Positions 7,596 to 38,024 of a DNA stretch of 40,456 nt are shown here, in pieces. The stretch's first letter is position 1; every line of letters begins with the position of its first letter. This DNA is from a virus (lineage: Duplodnaviria; Heunggongvirae; Uroviricota; Caudoviricetes). Both the position numbers and the translations under genes were made by a program. The stretch spans positions 1 to 40,456 of IMG/VR virus record IMGVR_UViG_2778261534_000007; one strand, given 5' to 3'. Under the pieces are notes generated by a model that saw only the letters and a list, made by a program, of their open reading frames with translations, was not told the DNA's origin and did not search any database.

Positions 7596-7730
7596 CTATT
7601 TCATTGCGCATAACGCCTCCAGTTGTTTCTTTGCTGCTCTAATTAATTGTTTAACTCGGCGTGATAATTCAGATTCGTGCGGGTAGAAAGCGGACATGAC
7701 GCCGCTACCCGCGAGCTGAAAGTGCATCAT
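7596..7730 (-). CDS. cIII: cIII-like protease inhibitor (44 aa)
   Basis: MMHFQLAGSGVMSAFYPHESELSRRVKQLIRAAKKQLEAL resembles lambdoid cIII; AAGGAG RBS before the ATG at 7730. The longer listed ORF (to 7835) runs through a terminator hairpin and is rejected. Confidence 0.7.
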   Translation of the reverse strand: MMHFQLAGSGVMSAFYPHESELSRRVKQLIRAAKKQLEALCAMK

Positions 7731-7793
7731 GGGTAACTCCTTATATTTGATTGCATAACGAAAACGCCTCGAGTGAAGCGTTATTGGTATGCA

Positions 7794-7820
7794 TATAAAA
7801 AGGCCCTCACACTGGAGGGC
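7794..7820 (-). terminator. Intrinsic terminator (tL1-like) between the 156-aa gene and cIII
   Basis: Minus-strand hairpin GCCCTC-CAGTGT-GAGGGC followed by CTTTTTAT. Confidence 0.5.
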
Positions 7821-7924
7821 AAAGAAGATTTTCAATAATCAGAACAAGTCGGCTCCTGTTTAGTTACGAGCGACATTGCTCCGTGTATTCACTCGTTGGA
7901 ATGAATACACAGTGCTTATTTGTA

Positions 7925-8395
7925 CTAATAAAATACCCAATTTTCTGTTTCTTGGTTGTGTCCAAAGTTATATTCAATATCTGGTGTTGATGTATCAATA
8001 TTCTTCATCCCATCAACAAGAGTTGATACAACAGCCAAATCTTGTTTGATTCTCATTAAATGGTATTTCTTCCGGCGCAATAAACTTTCAATGGCAAGTT
8101 TCTTCGTTGGGAATGCAAAAGATCTTTCTGCATTTTTTGCTACTTTCTTAATTGCATATCTATTTCTCTTTTGTTTCCATTCCTGTAACCACTGATTTGG
8201 TGCTGGTTTAAAATTAACAATCCAATGCGCAGGAACCAACCATGCATAATGCTCTGTCTGATGAAAAGCTATATATTGAAGTGCGAATATTTTGATTCCA
8301 TCTTCTTCAACTGTCGCCTGGAATCTCCAGAAAACAGGCATTCCATCATGTTCAGTTTCTGATTCAGGAAAAGGTACGCTCCATGATTTTGTCAT
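7925..8395 (-). CDS. Hypothetical AT-rich accessory protein (156 aa) in the N-cIII (sieB/ral) slot
   Basis: ORF with markedly lower GC than the flanking N and cIII genes; followed by a 9-bp-stem inverted repeat (7883..7910); no family recognised. Confidence 0.6.
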   Translation of the reverse strand: MTKSWSVPFPESETEHDGMPVFWRFQATVEEDGIKIFALQYIAFHQTEHYAWLVPAHWIVNFKPAPNQWLQEWKQKRNRYAIKKVAKNAERSFAFPTKKLAIESLLRRKKYHLMRIKQDLAVVSTLVDGMKNIDTSTPDIEYNFGHNQETENWVFY

Positions 8396-8403
8396 ATCTC
8401 ACC

Positions 8404-8730
8404 TCAAATAAGTGGCTTGCTGCCTAATTTCATTTTCTGGCGACCAACACAAGTCACACCCATTTCACTGCGTGGCTTGCTGTACCATGTGCGCTGATTC
8501 TTGCGCTCAATACGTTGCAGGTTGCTTTCAATCTGTTCGTGGTATTCAGCCAGCACCGTAAGGTCTATCGGATTCAGTGCGCTTTCTACTCGTGATTTCG
8601 GTTTGCGATTCAGCGAGAGAATTGGGCGGTTAACTGGTTTTGCGCTTACCCCAACCAACAGGGGATTTGCTGCTTTCCATTGAGCCTGTTTAGCTGCGCG
8701 GCGTTCGCGGCGGCGTGTTTGTGCATCCAT
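8404..8730 (-). CDS. N: Antitermination protein N (lambda-type)
   Basis: Near-identity to lambda N as recalled (MDAQTRRRERRA.KQAQWKAANPLLVGVSAKPVNRPILSLNRKPKSRVESALNPIDLTVLAEYH...). Confidence 0.9.
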   Translation of the reverse strand: MDAQTRRRERRAAKQAQWKAANPLLVGVSAKPVNRPILSLNRKPKSRVESALNPIDLTVLAEYHEQIESNLQRIERKNQRTWYSKPRSEMGVTCVGRQKMKLGSKPLI

Positions 8731-8998
8731 CTGGATTCTCCTGTCAGTTAGCTTTGGTGGTGTGGTGGCTGGTAGTCTAGCTCCAGCTTGTTGAGTCTCA
8801 TTCGGAGGGGTATAACCGGCACCCCAGCGATTTTTCCATGCGACAACGTGCGCGTTATGGCGGCCTTATCGCCCGCGGCTCCCCATCTCGTCCACGCTAT
8901 TGCTAGCGTTGGGAGCGCTTCACCGCTCAACAGTAGGTAAGCACTTGCCAGTGACTAGCTGGCTTCACCACACACCAAAGCCTTCTGCTTTGAATGCT

Positions 8999-9029
8999 GC
9001 CCTTCTTCAGGGCTTAATTTTTAAGAGCG
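8999..9029 (-). promoter_or_regulatory. nutL (boxA CGCTCTTAA + boxB GCCCTGAAGAAGGGC)
   Basis: Reverse complement reads CGCTCTTAAAAATTAAGCCCTGAAGAAGGGC, the lambda nutL sequence; boxB at 8999..9013, boxA at 9021..9029. Confidence 0.8.
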
Positions 9030-9068
9030 TCACCTTCATGGTGGTTAGTGCGTCCTGCTGATGGCTAA

Positions 9069-9097
9069 ATAGTACGATTTGTACTTTATCGAGTCAA
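9069..9097 (-). promoter_or_regulatory. PL-like early leftward promoter (-35 TTGACT, 17-bp spacer, -10 TACTAT) with flanking operator-like TTTGTA/TACAAA repeats
   Basis: Sigma70 consensus-like hexamers with 17-bp spacing upstream of nutL on the minus strand. Confidence 0.55.
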
Positions 9098-9160
9098 TAC
9101 AAAATGTTCTAAATATAATTAGTTTTTTATAACGTTTTGTATTTAATGGGTTTATAATTT

Positions 9161-9190
9161 GGAAAAAGAAAACCCGACGCTAAGGTCGGG
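9161..9190 (-). terminator. Intrinsic terminator downstream of cI
   Basis: Minus-strand hairpin CCCGAC-CTTAGC-GTCGGG followed by TTTTCTTTTTCC. Confidence 0.55.
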
Positions 9191-9222
9191 TTATTGTTGT
9201 GTGTTTTAGAGTGGTGAGGCTG

Positions 9223-9882
9223 TTAACTAAATGTCTCTTCAGGCCACTGGCTGGCGATAACTTTCCCTACTACGGAACAGCTATCATTGCATGGAATCAT
9301 TGGATATTGCGGGTTTAGTGGCTGTAGGAACACCTGACCGCTATCCCTGATCAGTTTCTTGAAGGTAAACTCGTCACCACCAAGTCTGGCTATGCAGAAA
9401 TCACCTGGCTCAACAGCCTGCTCGGGGTCAACGAGAATTAACATCCCGTCAGGAAAGCTTGGCTTCGATCCTGTTGGCGCGGTCATGGAATTACCTTCAA
9501 CTTCAAGCCAAAACGCACAATCACTGGCTTTTTTGGTTGTGCTTACCCATCTCTCCGCATCACCTTTGGTAAAGGTTCTAAGCTCAGGCGAGAACATCCC
9601 GGCCTGAACATGAGAAAAAACAGGGTACTCATATTGTTTTTTAACGGGGGCAGATGAGTATTCGCCAACAGGTGAAAATGTACCGTCGTGGTTGAATGAG
9701 ACGTTATCAATACCAAGGTATTTAAACACCACACCAATCTCGTCAAGAGATGGATGACGAGATCCGCGCAACCAGTGACCAATTCCACCCTGCGTCATAC
9801 CAAGCTCTTCAGCTAACTTCTCTTGAGTTATGCCGAGCTCTTTCATTCTGGATCTAGCCAGTTCATACCATTTCATTTTCAT
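9223..9882 (-). CDS. cI: CI-type prophage repressor (HTH N-domain plus LexA/S24-like autocleavage C-domain)
   Basis: C-terminal ~150 aa match lambda cI as recalled ([22 protein letters not shown]...[48 protein letters not shown]...); N-terminal HTH ([23 protein letters not shown]) differs from lambda. Start at 9882 or 9876; the listed ORF start (9924) is a TTG extension. Confidence 0.85.
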
Positions 9883-9938
9883 ACCCTTATTATTACGCTC
9901 TGTACTAAAACCATCCATGCACAAGATGTATTTTTTGT

Positions 9939-9967
9939 TTGCATTCTAAAAGTACATATCGTATTAT
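9939..9967 (+). promoter_or_regulatory. PR-like promoter (-35 TTGCAT, 17 bp, -10 TATTAT) within the cI-cro operator region
   Basis: Consensus-like hexamers 27 nt upstream of the cro ATG; GTAC-containing operator-like repeats nearby. Confidence 0.5.
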
Positions 9968-9993
9968 TGTTTCATGGTTACTATGGAGGGCAT

Positions 9994-10209
9994 ATGAGCA
10001 ACCTACGAAAATATCGAGAGTCACTGAATATCTCTCAAACAACACTTGCTAAGGCAGTTGGATGCACACAGGGAGCTATCGGACATTGGGAATCTGGTCG
10101 TCGCTTCCCAGACCTTAAAACATGCCGTGCTCTTGTTGAGTGCCTAAACAAGTTAGGCGCAAAAGTCAGTCTTGATGACGTGTTCCCGCCGGAACACAAA
10201 GCCGCTTAA
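9994..10209 (+). CDS. cro: Cro-like HTH repressor (71 aa)
   Basis: Small HTH protein (ISQTTLAKAVGCTQGAIGHWESG) divergent from cI; GGAGGG RBS; the listed ORF from 9823 is a TTG-initiated extension. Confidence 0.75.
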   Translation: MSNLRKYRESLNISQTTLAKAVGCTQGAIGHWESGRRFPDLKTCRALVECLNKLGAKVSLDDVFPPEHKAA

Positions 10210-10217
10210 GACATTCC

Positions 10218-10249
10218 CGCTCTTACACATCCCAGCCCTGAAAAAGGGC
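10218..10249 (+). promoter_or_regulatory. nutR (boxA CGCTCTTAC + boxB GCCCTGAAAAAGGGC)
   Basis: Matches the lambda nutR boxA/boxB consensus directly downstream of cro. Confidence 0.8.
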
Positions 10250-10325
10250 ATTACCAGAAACAAATCTCTATGGTTTTGCGTTTCTTTGCGAAGCCAACTC
10301 TATCTAATCATTAAGGAAATTATCT

Positions 10326-10607
10326 ATGGGTACTATTGCAACTAAAAGCAAGAAAGCGGCTCGCATCGAGTCAGCCTTGCTGAACAAACTGGCACTGATG
10401 GGGCAGAAGACATTCGCTCGAGCGATGGGGGTTCCTGAATATCAGGTAAGCCGATGGAAGAATGGTTTCTTCTCGCAGGTAAGCATGATGCTTGCTGTTC
10501 TGGAATACGGAATCGAAGACGATGAAATGGCTGAATTGACTAAGCGGCTTGCCGATTACCTGACAAAAGAAAAAGCCCCGAAGAACGGCGAATTCTTCGA
10601 GGCCTGA
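10326..10607 (+). CDS. cII: CII-like transcriptional activator (93 aa)
   Basis: Similarity to lambda cII as recalled (RIESALLNK.A..G......A.GV...Q.SRWK......S.LAVLE.G..DD.MA.L). Confidence 0.8.
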   Translation: MGTIATKSKKAARIESALLNKLALMGQKTFARAMGVPEYQVSRWKNGFFSQVSMMLAVLEYGIEDDEMAELTKRLADYLTKEKAPKNGEFFEA

Positions 10608-10641: not shown

Positions 10642-11286
10642 ATGACATACGAAAATGACAAATTCCAGGTTCTGAAGAGCATGAAGGTGCCAGATGATTT
10701 TAAATCAAATGGCTTTGTTTATGTGCTTTCGAATGAGTGCATGCCGGGAATTTATAAGATTGGGATGACTAAGCATTCACCAGAAGTTAGGGCTAAAGAA
10801 ATTTCAGCCTCTACTGGCGTTCCTAAGCCATTTAAGGTGATAGCAGCCTTTCATTCAAATAATCCCGCATCAGATGAAAAACTTATTCATAAAGCCTTTG
10901 CAAAAGAGAGGCTTAGTGATAATCGAGAGTTTTTCAAGCTTGAAGATAATGATCTTTATGAATCTCTAAATGAAATAAGGGCGCTGGTTGGCCCTGAAAG
11001 AAATGGCGAGACGGCAGAATACGCAATTTACGACTCATTCATTTCTTTTCGCCATGAAAATGAGCTTGATCTTAATGAGGAGCTTATAGAGCAAGGTCTG
11101 GGTAGTGTAGTTGGTCATCTTCCTGCGGTGAAAAATTTCCTTATTCGCGCCGGAATTGATTACGCGAAGCAACTGATAAGCAAATATAACTCATCGATAG
11201 TTATTAATACAGATGGCAGTGTGGTGATGGTTAAGTCTCTTGAAGCCCAATGCTTTGATGCGGAGGTTGGAAATGAGCCTTGCTGA
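10642..11286 (+). CDS. T5orf172 / GIY-YIG-like domain protein (214 aa), inserted between cII and O
   Basis: N-terminal motif GFVYVLSNECMPGIYKIGMT (GIY...YIG-like spacing) with a downstream conserved Arg and acidic residues; AGGAG RBS; more AT-rich than its neighbours; 3' end overlaps the O start by 14 nt. Confidence 0.6.
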   Translation: MTYENDKFQVLKSMKVPDDFKSNGFVYVLSNECMPGIYKIGMTKHSPEVRAKEISASTGVPKPFKVIAAFHSNNPASDEKLIHKAFAKERLSDNREFFKLEDNDLYESLNEIRALVGPERNGETAEYAIYDSFISFRHENELDLNEELIEQGLGSVVGHLPAVKNFLIRAGIDYAKQLISKYNSSIVINTDGSVVMVKSLEAQCFDAEVGNEPC

Positions 11287-35786: not shown

Positions 35787-38024
35787 ATGTCAGATATCAC
35801 CGCAAATGTTGTGGTAAGCATGCCTTCGCAACTCTTCACTATGGCGCGTTCTTTTAAAGCGGTTGCCAATGGCAAAATTTATATCGGAAAAATTGACACT
35901 GACCCGGTAAATCCTGAAAACCAGATTCAGGTTTATGTAGAGAATGAAGACGGTTCTCACGTTCCTGTTTCGCAACCAATCATCATTAACGCTGCTGGAT
36001 ATCCGGTATATAACGGACAGATTGCCAAATTCGTTACCGTGCAAGGCCATTCGATGGCTGTTTATGATGCGTATGGTGCGCAGCAGTTCTATTTTCCGAA
36101 TGTTCTTAAATATGATCCTGATCAGCTTAAAGTATCTCTATCAGGGAAAGACGGTCTTAAATACATCGGGACATGCCCTGATATAGCAATGTTAAGGACA
36201 ATTGAGCCTGAGCGAGATCAGCAAAAGATTTTCGTCGACTTCCACACTACAGGCATGAAGCCTACAGTATCAGGTGATACTGGTGGTGGTCTGTTTGTGT
36301 CAGATTTCACAGATTCTACTTCTGCAGATGATAACGGCATGGTCATTGTCACTGCGGGTGGTAAACGCTGGAAACGTGATCTTCAAGGTAAGGGGTATGT
36401 AACACCACGTATGTTTGGTGCGTGGATGGATGCTCCATATATTGACTGGAATACTATTCAGGCCACAGGGTATCCTAGAGCGCCAAGCATGGGTGGCGTC
36501 GATTTAACAGGAGTAACAAATGATGGATTAGCACTTAATAAAGCTTATCTAACTAAGCTTCCTGTTTTCATAGACCAGCCCATATATATGGGTAACACTC
36601 AAATTGACATTAGCCAGTTTAGATGGGAAGGGATTAGTCTAAATCTATATGGGATTAATCCACAAAAAAGTATTGTTTATACATCAGGAAGTGGTGGTTT
36701 TGTTATGGGAAGTTGGGGGCACAATCTTAAAGTAAAGAATATGTGTTTTCGCAACGCTGACGATGAATATTCAGGTAGCCCATTGGTCATTTCTGGTCAA
36801 ACACAAACTTTTGGCGGTGGTAGTGAATATGATATTAAAAATAACATATTTCTACATTATAAATTTGCACTTCCCTTATCATGCTTTGTCAGTAATGTTA
36901 CAAACAACCAAGCATATGATTGTATCTATGGTTTCGGTTTGGCTGGCACATCTACTACATTCTCTTCCAACTGGGCAAGGCATTGTGACTACGGATATCT
37001 GTGGGGCGCGGCTATTGATAGAACAACATATGATCCGGTGAACAGTCCTTACCCATTGATGTATGTTAAGGCCACAAATATCGCGTCGGATGGATGTAAA
37101 TTACCACATAAGTTCTATCAATTTAGATCTTTAAGTATTGATGGTCTAGGTATTGAGGGTGTCACAGGAGATCATTGCTTAGATTTTACAGATATAGTTC
37201 AGCAGGATGCTACTTCGCTAATGGAGTTGTCAAATATCTCATGCAATCTTAAGGAAGACAATTCGGTAGGTGTGACGCACTTCATATCATTGCCAACTAA
37301 TGAACAGAATGGACCAACACAAGTTAGGATATTATCTGGATATGTTCGGGCATACAAAGGGATTACCATTCTTAAGAATACATCTGACGAGTCAAGCCAG
37401 TATCAATGCCGTGGGTTTGATATTTGTGATGGGTTCAAATTCATAAAGCAAACAAGCGGTAGTTCTATCGCTGATGACTACGTTAGAGGGAGTAAATATC
37501 ATTCAAGATTCTATGGTGAACATACAGGTATTGGTTATCAGACAGGCTCTAATGGCACTAAACTTTCAGCATTACATCAGGCATCAAATGCAGTATATCC
37601 ACAAGTTATTACAGAGAACGGTACAATACTCATGCCTTATGGGAGGGCTCTCGATATTCTTATAGCAACAGATGGAGAGGAATCGTATTATACTGGTGGT
37701 GTTTTTATTGCCGGTGAGATAAGTATAATTCCTATTAACCAAAATGGATTGGGAGGGGTTAACGAAAATGGAGGGGTTATTTTATTTAGCGTTTCAGCTA
37801 AAGATCAAGCAACGTTATTATCATCAAAAGTTTGGGTAAATAAAATTACAGGAGACAAGCTATTAAATAATGTAGTGGTTTCCAAGTACAACAATGGAAG
37901 CCAAACAATACTAAGGATAAACTTCGCAACAGCAACCATCTCTCAAGCCATATTGCATATTACACTAACCTCACAAGGTCGGATGCATTACTATGATAAG
38001 AGATGGAAAATTGTAACTCCGTGA
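35787..38024 (+). CDS. Tailspike protein: P22-type N-terminal head-binding domain plus divergent beta-helix receptor-binding domain
   Basis: Residues 1-~115 match the P22 gp9 N-domain as recalled ([11 protein letters not shown]...F...[35 protein letters not shown]...VLKYDPDQ); the remainder diverges and is AT-rich; GGAG RBS. Confidence 0.85.

Follow-up and report, generated by a model that had tools for sequence, protein, structure and literature searches.

The cI repressor gene in the window, by which we mean the whole 40,456-nucleotide stretch of phage DNA that we analysed, resembles lambda cI in one part and differs from it in another. This raises the question of which immunity specificity the locus encodes, and whether that specificity is new. 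The window corresponds to a P22-like (Lederbergvirus-type) coliphage genome or prophage, a mosaic with matches to IME10, Dewey, Louie, Kapi1 and 683R2 in which the P22-like blocks include the portal, terminase, coat and tailspike genes. We conclude that it very probably contains the immunity region of a P22-like temperate coliphage or prophage that belongs to the already described VT2-Sakai immunity type.

The two-part repressor and its Cro

The cI gene lies on the minus strand at 9223–9876 or 9223–9882, depending on the start codon, within an open reading frame (ORF) spanning 9223–9924. Translation from the ATG at 9882 yields a protein of 219 amino acids (MKMKWYEL...) and translation from the ATG at 9876 yields one of 217 (MKWYEL...); the second ATG is the database-annotated start of cI in Nil2 and phage 720R6. 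A 233-residue reading initiated at a TTG (9924) was rejected because it runs through the operators.

The repressor consists of two parts. The N-terminal DNA-binding domain (residues 1–83; 9634–9882, minus strand) was assigned to the VT2-Sakai/Nil2 type by alignment and by a match of residues 11–58 to Pfam HTH_3 (E = 8.3e-11). The C-terminal part (residues 84–219; 9223–9633, minus strand) is lambda-like by alignment, Pfam and PDB searches, and comprises the linker, the S24 peptidase and the oligomerisation domain. Residues 87–209 match Pfam Peptidase_S24 (E = 8.9e-29), and the best match among solved structures is the lambda repressor (PDB 3bdn, E = 2e-96). The Ala94–Gly95 cleavage site in the interdomain linker lies within HVQAGMF, identical to lambda, and the catalytic dyad Ser132/Lys175 is invariant, aligning with lambda Ser150 and Lys193 (initial Met counted). 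With a helix-turn-helix (HTH), an S24 domain with its Ser/Lys dyad and an Ala-Gly linker site all present, the protein is predicted to belong to the LexA/lambda cI-type autocleaving repressors.

Alignment with cI of lambda (NC_001416) confirmed the central proposal of the initial annotation, that a lambda-like C-domain is joined to a different DNA-binding domain. Over the 136 residues that run from Y84 (YEYPVF) to the C-terminus, window and lambda cI agree at 133 positions, the exceptions being C122/S, D200/E and S219/G. The DNA encoding this part is 92.7% identical to lambda (93.3% by blastn over 9229–9633), so that nearly all nucleotide differences are silent; the C-domain is thus near-identical to that of lambda rather than identical, as had been suggested. 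By contrast, only 17 of the first 83 residues are shared with lambda (~20%), and identity jumps from this level to 98% at residue 84, in the interdomain linker. The divergent segment is therefore longer than the ~60 residues first proposed. It is also not unrelated to its lambda counterpart: a weak local match covers the HTH (12 of 26 residues identical, BLASTP E = 1e-7), and window cI and lambda cI alike match Pfam HTH_3, which makes the HTH domain a remote homologue of that of lambda.

The cro gene (9994–10209, plus strand) encodes a 71-residue protein of the HTH_3 type (Pfam E = 1.4e-12) that falls into the VT2-Sakai/Nil2 type, being 99% identical to Cro of Nil2 and 100% identical to that of 720R6. 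It gave no BLASTP alignment with lambda Cro even at E ≤ 100, in keeping with the earlier statement that cro is unrelated to lambda. Cro resembles the N-domain of the cI from the same phage (35% identity, E = 5e-13), with TQG-IGHW common to the recognition helix. By this comparison the two HTH_3 domains are paralogous, and a likeness of this kind is the pattern expected where repressor and Cro recognise a common set of operators. A 128-residue TTG extension of cro was rejected, as it too runs through the operators.

Operators, promoters and the regulatory chassis

Six putative operators, three at PL and three at PR/PRM, are 17-bp pseudo-palindromes of roughly the form a-AGTAC-N5-GTAyT-t. They were compared with the six VT2-Sakai operators tabulated in Supplementary Table S1 of PMC10742460. 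A weight matrix built solely from these published VT2-Sa sites was also used to scan the whole 40,456-bp window. On the PL side, OL1 (TAGTACGATTTGTACTT, 9070–9086) has one mismatch to VT2-Sa OL1 (spacer position 10) and the top matrix score of the window (20.4 bits). OL2 (CAATACAAAATGTTCTA, 9095–9111; matrix rank 3) has two spacer mismatches to its counterpart, and OL3 (TATAACGTTTTGTATTT, 9128–9144; matrix rank 5) has two, at positions 3 and 8. On the PR side, OR3 (TATTACGCTCTGTACTA, 9891–9907) has one mismatch to VT2-Sa OR3 (position 17), OR2 (ATGCACAAGATGTATTT, 9917–9933) has two spacer mismatches and abuts the putative PRM −35, and OR1 (AAGTACATATCGTATTA, 9950–9966; matrix rank 2) has two mismatches (positions 11 and 17) and overlaps the PR −10. 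All of these mismatches, one or two per site, fall at spacer positions 8–11 or at position 17, with the exception of OL3 position 3; only OL3 differs from its VT2-Sa counterpart inside a half-site. The OR1–OR3 positions, OR3 among them, coincide with features annotated as 'putative operator' in AP005153, and the Stx1 phage and Nil2 have OR sites with the same sequences as those published for VT2-Sa.

The matrix ranked the six operator positions as the top six of the window (10.95–20.36 bits), with the next-best site at 10.07 bits. Across 200 shuffles, the sixth-best score had a mean of 9.6 and a maximum of 11.6. OR2, the lowest of the six at 10.95 bits, would not stand out by the matrix alone; the set of six, arranged in two clusters flanking cI, does. 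A degenerate pattern, WRKTACN5GTAYYW with two mismatches allowed, was dropped as too loose (80 matches in the window against 63 expected), and a seed-based inverted-repeat search missed the operator palindromes, returning only a spurious OL1/OL2 pairing. Lambda-type operators (TATCACCG..., TATCACCGC-type) are absent from both PL and PR, and the OL and OR sequences are unrelated to those of lambda. The GTAC-type candidates that the initial annotation had suspected at PL and PR were thus borne out as six non-lambda sites matching VT2-Sakai OL1–3 and OR1–3, except that OL3 lies outside the 9030–9110 interval proposed for the search of the left operators.

The spacing of the sites also departs from that of lambda. 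Centre-to-centre distances are 33 bp (OR1–OR2), 26 bp (OR2–OR3), 25 bp (OL1–OL2) and 33 bp (OL2–OL3), a range of 25–33 bp compared with 23–24 bp in lambda, and OR2 does not overlap the PR −35. Owing to these two features, the details of cooperative pairing may differ from lambda.

A consensus scan identified promoter candidates for both early operons. The predicted PL (9069–9097, minus strand) has a −35 of TTGACT (9097–9092), a 17-nt spacer and a −10 of TACTAT (9074–9069); OL1 covers its −10 and spacer, and OL2 covers its −35. The predicted PR (9938–9967, plus strand) has a −35 of TTTGCA, an 18-nt spacer and a −10 of TATTAT, and its position agrees with the annotation of AP005153; OR1 covers this promoter, whose transcript would start near 9974. 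The scan did not pick up PRM. A weak candidate for PRM was read directly from the sequence at 9889–9917 (minus strand), with a −35 of TGGATG (9917–9912), which is the one annotated in AP005153, a 17-nt spacer and a −10 of AATAAT (9894–9889).

The genes and sites around this core are largely of the lambda type. The N antiterminator gene (8404–8730, minus strand), first gene of the PL operon, matches Pfam N36 (E = 4.9e-25), and the interval 8429–8777 is 92% identical to lambda by blastn. Both nut sites match the lambda boxA and boxB strings exactly: nutL at 8999–9029 (minus strand; boxB 8999–9013, boxA 9022–9029) and nutR at 10218–10249 (plus strand; boxA 10218–10225, boxB 10235–10249). The segment 8969–9063, which spans nutL and the PL leader, shows 97.9% identity to lambda; this homology stops ~8 bp short of the position of lambda OL1. 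Its end at 9063 lies close to where the PL transcript should start (about 9062). Further along the leader, between nutL and the N start (8778–8968), lambda homology is interrupted by a GC-rich segment that makes this part ~110 bases longer than in lambda. The extra segment is common to phage 720R6, and an Rfam search at the gathering threshold returned nothing anywhere in the window, the extended N leader included.

The cII activator gene (10326–10607, plus strand) was identified by Pfam Phage_CII (E = 4e-30). A TTGC-N6-TTGC cII site on the minus strand at 10338–10351 is in the PRE position, 12 nt inside cII; the lambda site lies 9 nt inside its cII. Because this site matches lambda in position and orientation, a plus-strand TTGC-N6-TTGC at 10276–10289 was rejected as the cII site. 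That second repeat sits in the spacer between nutR and cII and may be due to chance, the pattern occurring three times on each strand of the window. The cIII gene (7596–7835) is an intact ORF with a family match.

Downstream of cI, an intrinsic terminator (9171–9192, minus strand) consists of an 8-bp stem followed by a T-run. The segment 9165–9200 is 88.9% identical by blastn to lambda 35799–35834, the terminator after rexB, and its stem shows a compensatory G:C to A:T change relative to lambda. The 78 bp between OL3 and the cI stop hold this terminator, stops in all six frames and no ORF, so the earlier observation that rexAB is missing between PL and cI stands. As a separate point, the terminator homology fits either a rex-less derivative or an ancestor of the lambda cI-rex-terminator arrangement.

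Taken by analogy with lambda, the region most likely works as a standard lambda-style switch. Dimers of cI would bind OL1/OL2 and OR1/OR2 cooperatively through the lambda-type C-domain, thereby blocking PL and PR. At OR2, cI would abut the PRM −35 and activate its own transcription; OR2 would be centred near −43 of the putative PRM, the geometry that lambda uses for activation. Transcripts from PRM would begin at the A of ATG 9882 or beside it, so that the cI mRNA is probably leaderless, as in lambda. Occupancy of OR3 would provide negative autoregulation of cI, while Cro would bind the same operators with the opposite preference. A cII-dependent PRE would establish repression, the terminator at 9171–9192 would end the cI transcript, and activated RecA would trigger self-cleavage of cI at Ala94–Gly95, leading to induction.

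Immunity type and closest relatives

Searching 8900–10300 against phage records by megablast matched 122 records, five of which cover at least 80% of the query: vB_EcoP-720R6 (99.2%), Dewey (99.1%), vB_EcoP-683R2 (99.0%), Louie (98.9%) and phi458 (97.6%). Two deposited phage genomes share the cI-cro module at 99% identity or better, and three more at 98–99%. In 776 of 5,426 complete E. coli genomes (~14%), at least 80% of the cI-cro query is present, and 98 records reach at least 99% identity. The nearest relative, 720R6, encodes cI and Cro proteins 100% identical to those of the window, including all 83 N-domain residues, and has the same lambda-type N and leader. 720R6, 683R2, Louie and Dewey are filed as, or match, P22-like podophages; phi458 is the exception, and differs further from the window in carrying an extra 348-aa ORF between cI and PL.

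One difference from 720R6 lies between cII and O. There the window carries a 214-aa ORF (10642–11286, plus strand) matching T5orf172/MUG113 (GIY-YIG-like; Pfam E = 2e-16 and 2e-15), whose end runs into the beginning of O when that gene is given its longest reading, which is TTG-initiated (start 11240). 720R6 is without the T5orf172 gene and has only a 48-aa ORF at this position, so the gene looks like an inserted moron or homing-endonuclease-like gene. A further ORF of 156 aa, between N and cIII (7925–8395, minus strand), gave no Pfam match; lambdoid PL operons have accessory or exclusion genes at this position.

The wider group is the VT2-Sakai type, which comprises VT2-Sa, Nil2, the Stx1-converting phage AP005153, Stx2 II, phage 2851 and the PA-series Stx2a phages. 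We base this link on two points: the published operator sequences recur unchanged in the Stx1 phage and Nil2, and the PST1 PA phages have been described as the Stx2a prophage of strain Sakai (PMC4587872). The type shares the cI architecture of the window, with 96% identity in the N-domain, 97% in the C-domain and 99% in Cro, together with six operators in the same order, near-identical half-sites and the same PR/PRM layout. The N-domain is identical to that of Nil2 and the Stx1 phage at 80 of 83 positions, and the three substitutions (D46, E47 and V60) lie outside the recognition helix; cI of Nil2 is 97% identical overall. At the nucleotide level, the cI-cro block (9223–10209) is 92.8% identical to Nil2, AP005153, Stx2 II, 2851 and the PA phages. 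This ~7% divergence marks the window as a distinct allele. One extra T lies between OR2 and OR1. The surroundings also differ. The window has the backbone of a P22-like podophage and not of an Stx phage; its N is of the lambda type, whereas Nil2 has no DNA similarity over the N region; and it lacks the 173-aa ORF located between PL and cI in Nil2 and the Stx1 phage.

The cargo at that position varies within the immunity type: Orf11 of phi458 (348 aa; L006 3186–4232), ORF22 of Nil2 (173 aa; L004 1002–1523) and its equivalent in the Stx1 phage. Neither Orf11 of phi458 nor ORF22 of Nil2 gave a Pfam match. The cI-PL interval, where lambda has rexAB, may serve as a site of variable content for genes of exclusion or defence.

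Lambda itself shares with the window the 136-residue C-terminal part of cI (98% identical, with cleavage site and Ser/Lys dyad conserved), N, nutL, nutR, the homologue of the post-rexB terminator, a cII site at PRE, the 3 + 3 operators and the divergent PRM and PR. It differs in the N-domain (~20% identical), in a Cro of another Pfam family than the HTH_3 protein of the window, in operator sequence and spacing, in having rexAB, and in a cII that is only distantly similar. The features of imm lambda were not found in the window, which has no lambda operators, no lambda cI N-domain or Cro, and no rexA or rexB. The proposal of a non-lambda specificity on a lambda regulatory chassis is supported by this combination: the N-domain, Cro and operators are non-lambda, while the C-domain, N, nut sites, terminator and the cII site at the PRE position are lambda-like. 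The specificity expected from these sequences is VT2-Sakai, not lambda. Strict homo-immunity with VT2-Sakai is likely rather than certain, given that D46, E47, V60 and one OL3 half-site base differ from VT2-Sa. The idea that the immunity is new did not hold, since N-domain, Cro and the six operators all fall into a well-known type, the very finding that the initial annotation had named as leaving nothing new beyond the mosaic.

The VT2-Sa repressor has a history in the literature. As summarised in PMC10742460, Fattah et al. (Genes Genet Syst 2000) described VT2-Sa CI as having a lambda-like C-terminus and a dissimilar N-terminus. [quoted passage not shown] In addition, a 2022 survey placed lambda CI in Clade I with one group of Stx-phage CI that is 61% identical to lambda overall; this figure is close to the value to be expected of a hybrid like that in the window.

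Alternative readings and the origin of the hybrid repressor

The reported cross-immunity gives weight to a reading in which the region is functionally lambda-immune, through cross-reaction via lambda operators or through mixed oligomers, so that its immunity would not be distinct. Lambda CI does bind VT2-Sa operators in electrophoretic mobility shift assays (EMSA), and the HTH regions have 12 of 26 residues in common. The affinities, however, are 3.7–6.4 µM on VT2-Sa sites compared with 0.2–0.35 µM on lambda's own OR1 and OL1 (PMC10742460). Similar micromolar values were obtained in the same EMSA on unrelated Stx2-I sites (PMC10742460), which suggests that lambda CI binding to VT2-Sa sites is near non-specific. 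The window, moreover, has no lambda-type operator at PL or PR, its lambda homology stops at 9063, and its Cro is unrelated to lambda Cro. We regard functional lambda immunity as improbable. Even less credible is a decayed, non-functional immunity region of a cryptic prophage, to which we give next to no weight. The absence of rexAB and the ~110 extra bases of the nutL–N leader would suit decay, but each of cI, cro, cII, cIII, N and O is an unbroken ORF that strongly matches its family, and neither the catalytic residues nor any of the six operators has been lost. Outside this region the window matches complete genomes of P22-like phages, and the closest relatives (720R6, Louie, Dewey and phi458) are deposited as phages.

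A recent, phage-specific domain fusion creating a previously unseen specificity would explain the sharp change from ~20% to 98% identity at residue 84, which resembles a recombination junction. Against this, the same hybrid cI, cro and operators occur in Nil2, the Stx1 phage, Stx2 II, 2851 and the PA series; the 122 phage records and ~14% of complete E. coli genomes carry the hybrid, and it was described in 2000 (Fattah et al., in the summary of PMC10742460). Salmonella phage SPN9CC (P22-like), like g341c, ST64T and others, has a colinear 217-aa cI of the same two-part make-up in which both halves are much more diverged: identity to the window is 51% in the N-part, and the C-part is 79–81% identical to both the window and lambda. 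It follows that N-domains of this family were paired with lambda-family C-domains long ago. The word 'fused' in the initial annotation was apt for a real two-part protein, but not for the recent event that it implied, and we consider such an event extremely improbable.

Within the C-domain, the DNA of lambda, the VT2-Sa allele and the window allele differ pairwise by 7–9%, and the near-identity of the C-domains of E. coli phages to lambda is better read as later recombination or homogenisation of this segment. On these comparisons, the simplest reading would be that the repressor lineage is old and that homologous recombination has swapped its C-domain segment with those of lambda-like phages, with putative junctions in the cI linker and where the PL transcript should start. 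The exchange may have gone in either direction, and lambda could equally be the recipient.

The lambda C-domain carries the dimer, tetramer and octamer contacts of the repressor. With 98% identity over this part, window cI could conceivably form mixed dimers or cooperative assemblies with lambda-type cI in polylysogens, a prospect that we consider unlikely, though less so than the alternatives above. If it holds, partial cross-immunity, dominant-negative interference or coupled induction between heteroimmune prophages would be possible outcomes, and mixed oligomers could explain the VT2-Sa/lambda cross-immunity attributed to Fattah et al. in the account of PMC10742460.

The immunity type found here has been on record from Stx phages for 25 years, and E. 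coli carries it very commonly; beyond the mosaic, there is nothing new in it. The region is a textbook case of lambdoid mosaicism, with its apparent junctions in the cI linker and near the expected start of the PL transcript. For annotation, the phage of the window can be assigned to the VT2-Sakai-type immunity, which bears on Stx-phage superinfection and on prophage typing. Immunity to Sakai-type Stx2a and Stx1 phages is predicted for its lysogens; conversely, the phage would not plate on bacteria lysogenic for those phages.
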